NCBI GenBank assembly: GCA_050331215.1
Contig: JBHJHB010000117.1
Coordinates: 1 to 64,000, forward strand
Reading direction: 5' to 3'
DNA: 64,000 nucleotides
Source: Sandaracinaceae bacterium
GTDB lineage: Bacteria; Myxococcota_A; Polyangia; Polyangiales; Sandaracinaceae
The notes beneath the pieces are model-generated. The model saw only the letters and a list, made by a program, of their open reading frames with translations. It was not told where the DNA came from and made no database searches. The position numbers and the translations under genes were made by a program. This document shows, piece after piece, positions 53,589-60,258 of the stretch (its first letter is position 1; each line of letters starts with the position of its first letter).

Positions 53589-54224
53589 ATGAGCCCCGAA
53601 ACGGTCGAGCCCCACCCGTCCGAGCGCACCGGCCGGTCCGGCCCCATCTTGCTCGGCCTGGGCTGCTTCCTCGTCCTCCTCTTCGCGGCCGCCGCCGTCG
53701 GCGCCGCGTGGTTCCTCTGGAGCTCCGTGGCGGCCATGGTCGAGCCGAGCCCGGTCGAGGCGGGCGCGGCCGCGCCCATCGCCCCGACCACCGAGGGGGG
53801 CAAGCCCGGGACGGAGCCGGCGGTCGAGCCCCCGTCGCCCGGCTCGGGAGCGACGGCCGCGGAGGGGGGCGACGAGACGGAGGCCGTCGTCGCCGCCGAC
53901 ACGCCGCCGGCCGGGGGCGAAGCGCACTCCGGCCGGCTGGACTCGTCGGTGATCCGTCGCGTGGTCGGCCGGCGCGCCCGGGAGGTCCAGCGCTGCTACG
54001 ACGCCGGCGTACGCTTCAACCCACGGCTCGAGGGCCGGGTGGAGGTGGCCTTCGTCATCGACGGGTCGGGGCGGGTCCAGGACGTCGACCTGCCCACCAG
54101 CACCCTCGGCGCCCCCGCGGTGGAGGCCTGCATCCGGCGAGCGGTCGAGCGATGGCGCTTCCCTGCGCCGGAGGGGGGCTCGGTCGAGGTGCGCTACCCC
54201 TTCATGTTCCGCTCTGACCGCTGA
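53589..54224 (+). CDS. Membrane-anchored protein with TonB C-terminal-like domain
   Basis: N-terminal TM helix (ILLGLGCFLVLLFAAAAVGAAWFLW). A Pro/Ala/Glu-rich linker follows. The C-terminal ~90 aa (RRVVGRRAREVQRCYDAGVRFNPRLEGRVEVAFVIDGSGRVQDVDL...CIRRAVERWRFPAPEG) are TonB-C-like. Confidence 0.4.
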   Translation: MSPETVEPHPSERTGRSGPILLGLGCFLVLLFAAAAVGAAWFLWSSVAAMVEPSPVEAGAAAPIAPTTEGGKPGTEPAVEPPSPGSGATAAEGGDETEAVVAADTPPAGGEAHSGRLDSSVIRRVVGRRAREVQRCYDAGVRFNPRLEGRVEVAFVIDGSGRVQDVDLPTSTLGAPAVEACIRRAVERWRFPAPEGGSVEVRYPFMFRSDR

Positions 54225-55476
54225 GGCGCAGGTCCAGGCTCTCCGGGGGCAGCTCCCGCGCGCCATCCGGCCCCCAGTGCGTGGTCGGGGCGGCGCACGC
54301 CGGCGCCGTCCGAGGGACCTCCTCGAGGTCGTGGACGACGTGAAGGAAGACGAGCGGCGCGGGCCGATCCAGAGCCAGGAGCCGGCTGGTGGGGTCCGGC
54401 CCTTCGAGGAGCGCGGGCGCGAGGTAGTAGCCCCGGGCGCGCCGACCGGCCTCGCCCCCCACCCATCGACGGTAGCCGTCCCGCTCCGCCTGGCTCACGA
54501 GGGCCTCGGCGCGGCGGAGGCTCGATTCGTCCGGGAGGGGCTGCAGGGCGGAGGCGGAGCGAGCGGGATCGAGGGCGCCGATCGCCGCGGCCAGCAGCTC
54601 CCTCATCGGCGCCCCCTGGGACGGGCCCACATGGACGACCCAGCCGCCGGCATAGGGCGACGCGGCCCGATGGCGAAGCTCCTCGCGGACGGCGGTGGCC
54701 ACCTCGCGCAGCGCGGCGCCCTCGAGGACGACCAGCCGGCGGGGGCCGTAGGTGCGAAGCAGGACGGGCTTGAGGGTGCTGGCGGCGGCGCGAAGCACGG
54801 TCGCCGCCAGGGCACGTCCGCCGTGGTAGCGCAGGGCGTCGACGCCGGGCAGCGCGGCGAGCTGGCTCGCGCTGTCGCCGTCCACCCCCTGCACGAGGCC
54901 GAAGGACCCGCGCGGGAGCCCCTCGAGGCACATGCCGAGCACCACGGCCGAGAGGGGAGCCGCCTCCGGCCCCTTCAGCAGCACGGCCCGCCCCGCCAGG
55001 AGGTCCGCCAGCGGCTCGAGCAGCACGGCAGGAAGGGCGCTCGCGGCGGGTAGGTGGGCGAACAGGCGGGGCCCGTCGGCCCGGGAGGTCGGACCCTCGC
55101 CCGGGACCGGGGTCGCCTCGATGGTGCGGCGCGCCGCGACGATCAGCCGGGCGACGGCGGCCTCGGCCGCGTCGGGCGGCATGCCGGTGTCGAGGACCAG
55201 CACCTGCGCGAGGAGGGAGCGCTTGCCCTCGAGCCGGCCCACCGCATCCCGAAGCCGCGCTCGTTGCGCGCTCGGTCCGAGCCGCCGCCAGGCCCGCGCC
55301 CCGTCAACTCCGACCTCGACCGCGCGGGCGACGTCGCGCCGGCTCGAGCGAGGGACGTCGAGCAGGCTCGTGCCCTCTCGGGGGTCCTGGACGTCGAGCT
55401 CGTAGCCCTCCCGGGAGAGCGCCCAGTCGCCCCCGATGAAGTTGCGGGCGAAGCGGTCGTCATCGAGCAGAGCCAT
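54202..55476 (-). CDS. Aldehyde dehydrogenase (ALDH) family protein, terminal gene of the monooxygenase operon
   Basis: ATG at 55476. N-terminus NFIGGDWALSREGYELDVQDP... resembles the ALDH FINGEW block. It is followed by ...VLLKGPEAAPLSAVVL... The protein is somewhat short (424 aa) and divergent. The upstream part of the ORF-track entry is junk. Confidence 0.5.
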   Translation of the reverse strand: MALLDDDRFARNFIGGDWALSREGYELDVQDPREGTSLLDVPRSSRRDVARAVEVGVDGARAWRRLGPSAQRARLRDAVGRLEGKRSLLAQVLVLDTGMPPDAAEAAVARLIVAARRTIEATPVPGEGPTSRADGPRLFAHLPAASALPAVLLEPLADLLAGRAVLLKGPEAAPLSAVVLGMCLEGLPRGSFGLVQGVDGDSASQLAALPGVDALRYHGGRALAATVLRAAASTLKPVLLRTYGPRRLVVLEGAALREVATAVREELRHRAASPYAGGWVVHVGPSQGAPMRELLAAAIGALDPARSASALQPLPDESSLRRAEALVSQAERDGYRRWVGGEAGRRARGYYLAPALLEGPDPTSRLLALDRPAPLVFLHVVHDLEEVPRTAPACAAPTTHWGPDGARELPPESLDLRLSGQSGT

Positions 55477-55508
55477 CGTTCTCGTTTCGCTCCCTGCGCT
55501 CGGCCCGC

Positions 55509-56507
55509 TCAGAAGAAGCGGTCGAAGCGAACCCGGTCGGCGGGCAGGCCGCGCTCGACCACGCAGCCCCGCAGGACGGCGTCCACCATCGGCGGAGGCC
55601 CGGCGAGGTAGATCGGCGCCTCGGCCAGGTCGGCGACCTGCGCGAAGAACACGTCGCCGACGTTGCCCCGCGGCCCCGCCCATCCGTCCCGAGGGGACGG
55701 CTCGGAGAGGCACGTGACGACACGCAAGCGCCCGCCGTGCACCCGCGCCAGGCGCTCCAGCTCGTCGACGCACACCAGGTCCTCCCGCGTACGCGCGCCA
55801 TAGAAGAAGTCGACCTCGGCTCCCGCCGGGAGGGCGGCGCGCGCGATGCTCAGGAGCGGCGCGAGGCCGGAGCCGCCCGCGACGCACCGGAGCGGACCGC
55901 CGGCGGCCTCCCGGAGGTAGGCCCGGCCGAAGGGACCCTCCGCCTCGATCGCGTCGCCCTCCGCGAGGCGATCGAACAGGTAGGCGGTCGCTTCGCCCCC
56001 GGGCACCGCCTTGACCAGCAGCTCGAGGAGGCCCTCGTCGCCCGACGGGTTGGCCATCGAGTAGGCCCGGCGCCCCACCCCGGGGATCCGAAGGAGGACG
56101 TACTGACCGGGGAGGAAGGGGACCGCCGTGCCGGCGCTCGCGACCACCCGAAGCGTGCGTGGCCCGGGACGCTCGAGGCGGGTCACGCAGAGGGAGAGGT
56201 CCCGCGGGCGAGGCTCCGCGGGCAGGCCCTCGACCGGGCTCACCTGCAGGCGGAGATCGCTCGTCGCCTCGCACTGGCACAGGAGAACGCGTCCTCGGCG
56301 CCGGTCGCGGGGGGTGAGCCCCGCCGCGGCGGGCGCCCGGTCGCGCACCGTGCCCTCGAGGAGCCGGGCCTTGCAGCACCCGCACGTCCCACTCGAGCAC
56401 TCGTAGGGGAGCGGGATGCCCGCGGCGAGGCCGGCCATCAGGACACTCTGGCCGGCGGGCGCATCGAAGGAATGCGGCTCGCCCGCCAGCTCGACGAGGT
56501 GGTCCAT
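55509..56507 (-). CDS. tmoF: Monooxygenase NADH:ferredoxin oxidoreductase (2Fe-2S ferredoxin + FAD/NAD-binding), TmoF-like
   Basis: ATG at 56507. Plant-type ferredoxin cysteines (CSSGTCGCCKARLLEG...CQC). FNR-like RAYSMANP and GGSGLAPL motifs. Confidence 0.75.
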   Translation of the reverse strand: MDHLVELAGEPHSFDAPAGQSVLMAGLAAGIPLPYECSSGTCGCCKARLLEGTVRDRAPAAAGLTPRDRRRGRVLLCQCEATSDLRLQVSPVEGLPAEPRPRDLSLCVTRLERPGPRTLRVVASAGTAVPFLPGQYVLLRIPGVGRRAYSMANPSGDEGLLELLVKAVPGGEATAYLFDRLAEGDAIEAEGPFGRAYLREAAGGPLRCVAGGSGLAPLLSIARAALPAGAEVDFFYGARTREDLVCVDELERLARVHGGRLRVVTCLSEPSPRDGWAGPRGNVGDVFFAQVADLAEAPIYLAGPPPMVDAVLRGCVVERGLPADRVRFDRFF

Positions 56508-60038: not shown

Positions 60039-60127
60039 CGCTTACCCCGCTCACTTGTCACGCGTCGTCGAGCGCGTCGCCCCACCGGCCCGGAGGCCCC
60101 CCGACGCTGGGTCGGTCCGTGGGCGAC

Positions 60128-60145
60128 GTGACGTCTTCACGTCAC
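60128..60145. promoter_or_regulatory. Palindrome GTGACGT-N4-ACGTCAC about 90 bp upstream of tmoA (candidate operator)
   Basis: Perfect 7-bp arms, extending to 8 of 9, in the 220-bp region between tmoA (start 60038) and the LysR gene end (60259). Confidence 0.3.
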
Positions 60146-60258
60146 CTGTGCATCAGCCTAGGCGCTCCGCTTTTCCCGGAGCAATGGCGCTTATCCGGAA
60201 ACAGCGTCGCCTGAGAGCGGACAATCCGGAGGGGGCGCCTGCGGGCGAGGCCCGCGGC

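Follow-up and report, generated by a model that had tools for sequence, protein, structure and literature searches.

Which substrate does a four-component diiron monooxygenase serve when its genes turn up in a myxobacterial genome, and how did they come to be there? The question is raised by a stretch of 64,000 nucleotides from a Sandaracinaceae bacterium (assembly GCA_050331215.1, contig JBHJHB010000117.1, positions 1 to 64,000), referred to here as the window. A preliminary description of this DNA had placed at 54202-60258 a complete operon of the toluene-4-monooxygenase (T4MO) type with an appended aldehyde dehydrogenase (ALDH) gene, and had proposed that it oxidises aromatics or alkenes or hydroxylates a secondary-metabolite precursor. 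The six monooxygenase genes do follow one another in the T4MO order (alpha, gamma, Rieske, effector, beta, reductase), with their boundaries rightly placed according to Pfam and frame analysis. The computational follow-up indicates that they are likely to be isoABCDEF, encoding an isoprene monooxygenase (IsoMO) within a complete isoprene catabolic cluster.

The window contains about 74 % guanine plus cytosine (GC), so that long spurious open reading frames are common and the real frames had to be picked by codon-position GC. Between 54202 and 60038 the coding signal, as judged by codon-position GC together with Pfam, lies exclusively on the minus strand and defines seven co-directional genes. 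The cluster does not end at 60258, where the preliminary description had stopped: a LysR-type regulator gene and a divergent isoG-isoH-isoI(-isoJ-aldH) array lie just beyond, and the entire locus reads aldH2-like < isoF-E-D-C-B-A < lysR < > isoG-H-I-J-aldH >. The part that lies beyond the window end was read from a public Logan contig (L018, run SRR6462999), which is collinear with positions 52703-64000 and reaches 68622. Because this separately assembled contig crosses both borders of the cluster, a chimeric join there is unlikely, with the caveat that the two assemblies may share reads. In 11.3 kb they differ by two bases, at 58949 and 62900, which suggests strain-level variation or assembly error; the first of these changes residue 364 of IsoA, which is Arg in the window and Trp on L018.

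Window and L018 together contain all ten core iso genes (isoABCDEF plus isoGHIJ), the set that is accepted as the genomic signature of isoprene degraders (PMC7657509). A canonical, cluster-associated aldH of the aldH1 type is also present, on L018 outside the window. Given the ten core genes, glutathione-dependent isoprene catabolism is predicted, rather than aromatic oxidation or the tailoring of a metabolite. All eleven structural genes of the isoprene degrader Variovorax sp. WS11 have orthologues here with 45-70 % identity, namely IsoA 70, IsoB 60, IsoC 55, IsoD 59, IsoE 51, IsoF 45, IsoG 63, IsoH 61, IsoI 52, IsoJ 58 and AldH 57 %. The function of isoA-F in WS11 is documented by expression and by knockout (PMC7143210). 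Two of the partner proteins also pass curated equivalog models: IsoI scores 380.4 bits against NF049950 (cut-off 300) and IsoH 354.2 bits against NF049951 (cut-off 350).

The relatives of the alpha subunit point in the same direction. Its homologues split into about 95 proteins at 58-81 % identity, followed by a step down to toluene-monooxygenase-like (TMO-like) proteins at 51-54 %. The upper, Iso/Xamo group, whose isoprene and alkene monooxygenases are at 65-81 %, includes WS11 IsoA (P0022; 69.5 % identity over 492 aa by BLASTP, 70 % by tblastn), proteins named by NCBI “isoprene monooxygenase oxygenase subunit alpha”, and XamoA of Xanthobacter Py2 (P0061, 66 %). In a neighbour-joining tree of 130 sequences, built without bootstrap, the alpha subunit falls inside the Iso/Xamo clade, on a sub-branch shared with P0002 (81 %), two Pseudomonadales metagenome-assembled genomes (MAGs; 76 %) and a Candidatus Eisenbacteria MAG. 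A scan of 185,579 species-representative genomes returned 17 GTDB loci, the best alpha match (76 %) again being a Pseudomonadales MAG. Contigs encoding an IsoA of 90 % identity or more occur in JGI/ENA samples. The diiron site is intact, with all six ligands in place (E104, E134, H137, E197, E231, H234), and T201, N202 and Q228 are conserved as well. The nine pocket positions T100, V103, A107, F176, M180, T192, V196, T201 and F205 are the same as in WS11 IsoA. The ligand motifs of the Rieske ferredoxin IsoC (C43-P-H45 and C62-R-A-H65) can be read in its sequence, and IsoF carries C37-X4-C-X2-C, RxYS and GxGxxP.

Could the enzyme nevertheless be a toluene or aromatic monooxygenase of the T4MO/ToMO type, hydroxylating aromatic rings? 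The six-gene order and the domain set are the same, the alpha chains of known structure from ToMO and T4MO are matched at E = 1e-167 and 1e-162, respectively, and the alpha subunit bears the public name “toluene monooxygenase” (MGF1468878.1). However, the toluene-type relatives rank below the Iso/Xamo-type matches, and the pocket disagrees: by alignment ToMO has I100, E103 and F196, and the TMO-like group has V/I100, I103, L192 and F196. Moreover, no ring-cleavage, catechol dioxygenase or phenol hydroxylase genes occur in the window or on L018, where isoGHIJ adjoin instead. We regard this explanation as very improbable. A T4MO-like component set and order had thus been correctly recognised, whereas a specific affinity to T4MO does not hold, since the alpha subunit belongs to the IsoA/XamoA clade.

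A closer rival would be an alkene or epoxide monooxygenase coupled to the glutathione pathway whose physiological substrate is a different small alkene or diene, such as butadiene, propene or a marine volatile. XamoA comes from a strain grown on propene, and its presence in the same wider clade means that clade membership alone leaves the substrate unfixed. Cluster content also varies within the uncharacterised sub-branch to which this IsoA belongs: two Pseudomonadales loci (L001 and L002) have neither isoJ nor an aldH1-type aldH on the stretch examined, and the locus L023 has no reductase behind the beta subunit. In addition, IsoMO enzymes oxidise many alkenes (PMC7143210). Against this stand the complete isoGHIJ-aldH set, the fact that IsoI and IsoH pass models trained on isoprene-specific enzymes, and a pocket identical to that of WS11 IsoA and unlike that of XamoA, which has I100 and L196. 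Genes for an epoxyalkane:coenzyme M (CoM) transferase or an epoxide carboxylase were found neither in the window nor on L018. A substrate other than isoprene is improbable in our judgement, though less so than an aromatic one.

For isoprene as the substrate, the pathway chemistry can be inferred by orthology with the characterised systems of Rhodococcus AD45 and Variovorax WS11. The hydroxylase would be an alpha2-beta2-gamma2 complex (IsoA2-E2-B2) to which electrons from NADH are expected to pass via IsoF and IsoC, reaching the diiron site in IsoA under the gating action of IsoD. It would epoxidise isoprene to epoxyisoprene, which IsoI is predicted to open by conjugation with glutathione. IsoH would then oxidise the glutathione conjugate to the acid, formation of the coenzyme A (CoA) thioester is predicted for IsoG, and removal of glutathione is proposed for IsoJ. 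The predicted end is beta-oxidation to propionyl-CoA and acetyl-CoA (PMC9804861). AldH has no assigned function in this scheme and is essential in WS11 (PMC9804861).

A number of points weigh against the identification of the cluster as an isoprene-degrading one. The identity of IsoA to the WS11 protein, the single reference used, lies on or just under the 70 % that serves as marker threshold in one metagenomic pipeline (bioRxiv 10.1101/2025.11.03.686391), and its sub-branch (with P0002, L001, L002 and L004) contains no characterised member. XamoA, as said, shares the clade. The NCBI naming rules did not yield IsoA; among the NCBIfam models none matches alpha or gamma and the other monooxygenase subunits score below cut-off only, so that NCBIfam is unable to decide IsoA membership. 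The margin of IsoH over its cut-off is no more than 4 bits. A search for gshA and gshB, confined to the window and L018, found neither, and the evidence as a whole comes from the sequence of a MAG. Isoprene nevertheless remains the substrate that we consider likely. Table 1 lists the features of the locus together with those of related loci that are discussed below.

Table 1. Features of the iso locus and pseudo-ALDH homologues in related loci. Positions are those of the window unless another contig is named.
Feature	Position	Strand	Description
pseudo-ALDH (aldH2-like)	54202..55476	-	424 aa; Pfam Aldedh 2.7e-31, 109 bits
isoF	55509..56507	-	NADH:ferredoxin oxidoreductase; 332 aa; Pfam Fer2 + FAD_binding_6 + NAD_binding_1
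isoE	56530..57498	-	hydroxylase beta subunit; 322 aa; alternative start 57564 (344 aa); Pfam Phenol_Hydrox 1.7e-64
isoD	57573..57863	-	effector/coupling protein; 96 aa; alternative start 57890; Pfam MmoB_DmpM 2.6e-27
isoC	57944..58273	-	Rieske [2Fe-2S] ferredoxin; 109 aa; Pfam Rieske 2e-20
isoB	58289..58543	-	hydroxylase gamma subunit; 84 aa; Pfam TmoB 2.7e-26
isoA	58548..60038	-	hydroxylase alpha subunit with diiron centre; 496 aa; Pfam Phenol_Hydrox 1.8e-63 + YHS
isoA upstream region	60039..60258	-	candidate operator ATTGTCCG, a dyad, a palindrome
lysR	60259..61170	-	LysR-type regulator; 303 aa; Pfam HTH_1 + LysR_substrate
lysR-isoG divergent promoter region	61171..61285	+	contains ATTGTCCG
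isoG	61286..62503	+	family III CoA-transferase; 405 aa; Pfam CoA_transf_3 2.5e-112
isoH	62507..63187	+	1-hydroxy-2-glutathionyl-2-methyl-3-butene dehydrogenase (short-chain dehydrogenase/reductase, SDR); 226 aa; NCBIfam NF049951
isoI	63225..63944	+	isoprene-epoxide glutathione S-transferase (GST); 239 aa; NCBIfam NF049950
isoJ	63985..64704 (L018)	+	GST; window ends at 64000
aldH, canonical	64701..66110 (L018)	+	469 aa; Asn/Glu/Cys intact; beyond window end
pseudo-ALDH homologue	L003 7076-8215		Alphaproteobacteria MAG
pseudo-ALDH homologue	L002 5014-6375		Pseudomonadales MAG
pseudo-ALDH homologue	L001		Pseudomonadales MAG; gene appears frameshifted
pseudo-ALDH homologue	L010 5055-6485		Actinomycetota MAG
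pseudo-ALDH homologue	L017 14558-15928		Pseudonocardia thermophila DSM 43832
pseudo-ALDH homologue	L023 4239-5651		contig of P0004
pseudo-ALDH homologue	L024 1387-2640		TARA contig

The public annotation gives little hint of such a cluster. IsoF is listed by NCBI as “2Fe-2S iron-sulfur cluster-binding protein”, IsoH as “SDR family oxidoreductase” and the ALDH-like protein as “aldehyde dehydrogenase family protein”. Two gene models differ in length as well: NCBI gives 437 aa for IsoG (from a GTG at 61190) and 219 aa for IsoI, whereas alignments to WS11 and the NCBIfam model for IsoI favour the 405-aa and 239-aa versions adopted here.

How would such a divided cluster be regulated? With isoABCDEF on the opposite strand, beyond lysR, each operon must have a promoter of its own. 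In the whole 64-kb window there are exactly two copies of the octamer ATTGTCCG, and both fall in iso promoter regions: one (60225..60218, minus strand) precedes the start of isoA by 180 nt and the other (61232-61239, plus strand) precedes that of isoG by 47 nt, each oriented towards its own operon. In WS11, two Comamonadaceae MAGs, a Polaromonas MAG and a Pseudomonadales MAG, the spacer between lysR and isoG likewise contains the octamer or a one-off version of it (positions in related loci: L019 4937 and 5003, L005 4908, L015 5542/5557, L006 4894/4909, L001 7110/7132 and L004 684), and in some relatives it is part of a TGTCCG-N7-CGGACA dyad. In the actinobacterial loci L009, L010 and L017, the sequences preceding the iso genes do not show it. 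We infer that ATTGTCCG is a candidate operator for the LysR regulator, which probably drives both operons through a shared site of this type.

The stretch that separates the ATTGTCCG site from the start of isoA also contains a perfect palindrome, GTGACGT-CTTC-ACGTCAC (60128-60145), and a perfect dyad, GCTCCG-N7-CGGAGC (60164-60182). The promoter scan gave no sigma-70-like sites, the terminator scan one terminator-like hairpin, which is within chance expectation, and a repeat search of the regulatory region chance-level pairs only.

The seventh gene of the minus-strand operon, referred to here as the pseudo-ALDH, poses a question of its own. It had been described as an ALDH-like gene appended to the operon, which is true of its fold and not of its activity. 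Alignment to solved ALDHs and to the canonical AldH of the cluster itself shows that the WNYP, ELGG and GQxC motifs have become AASAL, LRTYG and ASPYA. The protein thus has neither the oxyanion Asn169 nor the general base Glu268 nor the catalytic Cys302 (ALDH2 numbering), and its C-terminus is short; with all three catalytic residues gone, the gene cannot encode an aldehyde dehydrogenase. BLASTP against WS11 AldH gives no match at E <= 1e-3. An AlphaFold (AF2) model is nonetheless confident, with a predicted local distance difference test (pLDDT) value of 88.7, a predicted template-modelling score (pTM) of 0.89 and template-modelling (TM) scores of about 0.8 to many solved ALDHs, so that we are dealing with a folded ALDH-like protein and not with a decayed gene.

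Nor does it stand alone. A word-indexed search with this divergent, Ala/Arg-rich protein returned 5 matches only; an exhaustive profile search of 1.84 billion representatives revealed about nine family clusters, all of them without the Glu and the Cys. The motif losses are the same in nine representative members and in four locus-encoded homologues, and canonical ALDHs that score just below the family retain Asn-Glu-Cys. Wherever the genomic context is available, the pseudo-ALDH gene comes directly after the iso monooxygenase genes, either after isoF or, where no reductase follows, after isoE, and this in Myxococcota, Actinomycetota and Proteobacteria. The second arrangement is seen at L001 12623-14587 and L023 3123-5651, where no recognisable isoF lies between the beta subunit and the pseudo-ALDH; the reductase of such loci may be encoded elsewhere. 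As far as can be judged from sequence, the pseudo-ALDH is a conserved non-catalytic accessory protein. In Rhodococcus AD45 a very divergent “aldh2” without assigned role directly follows isoF (PMC4676930; PMC7143210) and likely belongs to the same family.

These strands can be combined into one tentative picture, which we hold to be possible rather than probable in all its parts at once: a Sandaracinaceae isoprene degrader, the first in Myxococcota, whose two-promoter cluster would be controlled by a single LysR regulator via ATTGTCCG and in which the pseudo-ALDH, the equivalent of “aldH2”, would be a dedicated non-catalytic accessory of the monooxygenase. Assembly, protection and sensing are possible roles for such an accessory.

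The second half of the question concerns origin. The preliminary description had noted a lower GC content than in the flanks and had taken this as a sign of probable horizontal acquisition. On average the difference is there, 70.5 % for the region 54202-60258 and 73.8 % for the rest of the window, but it is not uniform: isoD, C, B and A (57500-60038) are at 65.1 %, whereas the ALDH-like, reductase and beta genes (54202-57498) have 74.6 %, equal to the flanks, and the low-GC stretch runs on past 60258 through isoG, H, I and J to about 64.7 kb.

As background for a codon-level comparison served 38 genes, 35 in the window and three beyond the cluster on L018, with pooled GC of 0.751, 0.508 and 0.951 at the three codon positions and a per-gene standard deviation (SD) of third-position GC (GC3) of 0.020 (35 window genes). 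One may suppose, then, that the cluster was inherited vertically within Sandaracinaceae and that the dip merely mirrors the amino-acid composition of conserved enzymes. For isoA itself (0.61, 0.41, 0.91) 87 % of the deficit falls on positions 1 and 2 and so reflects amino-acid composition; conserved background genes dip too, the lowest to 66.8 % GC; and isoE, isoF, aldH and lysR have a GC3 near the host value. For the whole cluster, in contrast, the three positions share the deficit about equally, and pooled GC3 is 0.912 as compared to 0.951 in the background, with 12 of the 13 genes below the background median (Mann-Whitney p = 2.3e-5), a small but significant deficit at synonymous sites. It is most pronounced in isoB, isoC and isoD (0.86, 0.78 and 0.82, i.e., 4 to 8 SD below background), while isoG, isoI and isoJ are at 0.89-0.90.

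The relatives also argue against purely vertical descent. Those nearest to IsoA come from contigs of 52-68 % GC belonging to Pseudomonadales, Eisenbacteria and unassigned organisms; Myxococcota are not represented among the 17 GTDB loci from the alpha scan. The phylogenies of this soluble diiron monooxygenase (SDIMO) group are known to be incongruent with those of their hosts (PMC11825192), and iso clusters elsewhere are plasmid-borne (PMC7143210). In the 2025 SDIMO review the isoprene sub-group is confined to Pseudomonadota and Actinomycetota, and horizontal transfer is stressed (PMC11825192).

Two points speak against transfer. Neither an integrase nor a transposase nor a tRNA gene is found among the flank genes at the cluster boundaries, and no flanking repeats were seen, the only tRNA genes of the window being at 18.4 and 25.0 kb; and the GC3 of the cluster, still 0.91, is near the host value. 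Weighing all this, we consider vertical inheritance rather unlikely and favour, with some reserve, an old and by now largely ameliorated horizontal acquisition; the earlier proposal of a foreign origin is thus plausible, though unproven.

The surroundings of the cluster look like ordinary host genes, and plasmid genes are absent from them. A metagenome scan for an empty site, using the glucose/sorbosone-dehydrogenase-like (GSDH-like) protein of the flank, found closest relatives that are 59-61 % identical and share no synteny. The PIN-PhoH protein encoded at 28011-29336 is 100 % identical to one from an NCBI Sandaracinaceae MAG, on a 98,989-bp contig that also encodes the exact IsoA, IsoF, IsoH and ALDH-like proteins; its next-closest matches are at 74-79 % and include three MAGs labelled Sandaracinaceae. 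At the left border there is no intergenic space at all: the 3' end of the pseudo-ALDH gene (minus strand) overlaps by 23 bp (54202-54224) with a convergent gene encoding a TonB_C-domain protein (53589-54224, plus strand).

Lastly, could the monooxygenase be a tailoring oxygenase for a secondary metabolite? Natural-product pathways abound in myxobacteria, and 15-20 kb away the window encodes a single-module, fully reducing type I polyketide synthase (PKS; 33175-39600, minus strand, KS-AT-DH-ER-KR-ACP, 2141 aa) accompanied by an aminotransferase. Yet about ten unrelated genes intervene (helicase, MFS transporter, Ser/Thr kinase, GNAT, phosphoesterase, GSDH, TonB-like), for which reason a link with the PKS was rejected. 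The monooxygenase genes also have a LysR regulator to themselves and, as partner, a complete catabolic operon that is syntenic with those of bona fide isoprene degraders. Because LysR and the divergent isoGHIJ-aldH mark an isoprene catabolic cluster, roles in aromatic oxidation and in secondary metabolism are both unlikely, the latter being the least credible of all the alternatives considered here.

The PKS gene is followed by those of a class I/II aminotransferase (31802-33178, minus strand) and a 405-aa protein without Pfam match (30582-31799, minus strand), and this set (30582-39600) could make a long-chain amine or amino-lipid. Elsewhere in the window, at 25182-27956 (plus strand) and adjoining the tRNA-His gene (25026-25099), lies the gene for a 924-aa protein with MVP_shoulder (2.6e-14) and Vault_3 domains, an unusual bacterial homologue of the eukaryotic major vault protein.

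Myxococcota are known for predatory and social lifestyles. In the literature searched, an iso cluster is nowhere described for this phylum, nor are Sandaracinaceae recorded as isoprene consumers. A Myxococcales MAG is present in a willow-leaf isoprene stable-isotope-probing data set, and the single passage about this MAG notes no iso genes (PMC8394569). Isoprene emission is comparable to that of methane, and the bacteria known to act as a sink belong to a small number of genera within Actinomycetota and Pseudomonadota (PMC7657509; PMC11825192); the Sandaracinaceae cluster, if truly what it appears to be, would extend this sink to a new phylum. Public names such as “toluene monooxygenase” and “SDR family oxidoreductase” hide clusters of this kind from marker-based surveys. 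From the recurrent dead ALDH paralogue one can derive a concrete hypothesis on what aldH2 of Rhodococcus AD45, so far unexplained, might be, and the shared ATTGTCCG motif is an operator candidate that can be tested with the LysR regulators found in Gram-negative isoprene degraders. The type of cluster is itself known and its biochemistry is left unchanged by these findings; what is new is the host phylum, the rearranged two-operon layout, the pseudo-ALDH family and the shared candidate operator.

How does the locus compare with the systems that are already known? With T4MO of P. mendocina and ToMO of P. stutzeri OX1, which are the best solved-structure matches, it has in common the components, the gene order, the diiron ligands and the fold; a distinctly lower sequence identity, other pocket residues and the lack of an aromatic catabolic context set it apart. 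The designation “group 2” for such SDIMOs belongs to the older numbering. In the 2025 review the same enzymes make up group 1, with the isoprene enzymes in subgroup E (PMC11825192). XamoABCDEF of Xanthobacter Py2 has the same six-gene order and an alpha subunit of the same clade. Strain Py2 disposes of its epoxides by a coenzyme-M pathway, whereas the partner genes here are those of the glutathione pathway, isoGHIJ.

In Rhodococcus AD45 the plasmid-borne cluster is arranged as isoGHIJ-isoABCDEF-aldh2-gshB2 and is accompanied by a duplicate isoG2H2I2J2 followed by aldh1. The ten core genes are shared, and aldh2 occupies the very position of the ALDH-like gene described here, directly downstream of isoF (PMC4676930). 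The duplicated isoGHIJ, the gshA/gshB genes of the plasmid and the MarR/GntR regulators are features of AD45 that are not seen in the Sandaracinaceae locus.

The closest parallel is the WS11 cluster, dmlR < > isoGHIJ-aldH-isoABCDEF-garB (L019). It belongs to a host of another phylum and is carried by a megaplasmid, whereas the present one has an ordinary host-like gene context. It is also a single co-directional array, while here isoABCDEF is encoded on the other strand, beyond lysR, giving two operons, and the place after isoF, taken in WS11 by the glutathione reductase gene garB, is held by the pseudo-ALDH, with no garB. What unites the two, besides the orthology of the structural genes, is a dmlR-type LysR gene divergent from isoG, whose product is 45 % identical to the LysR described here (arrangement: PMC7143210), the shared IsoA pocket, and motifs of the ATTGTCCG type in the lysR-isoG intergenic region.

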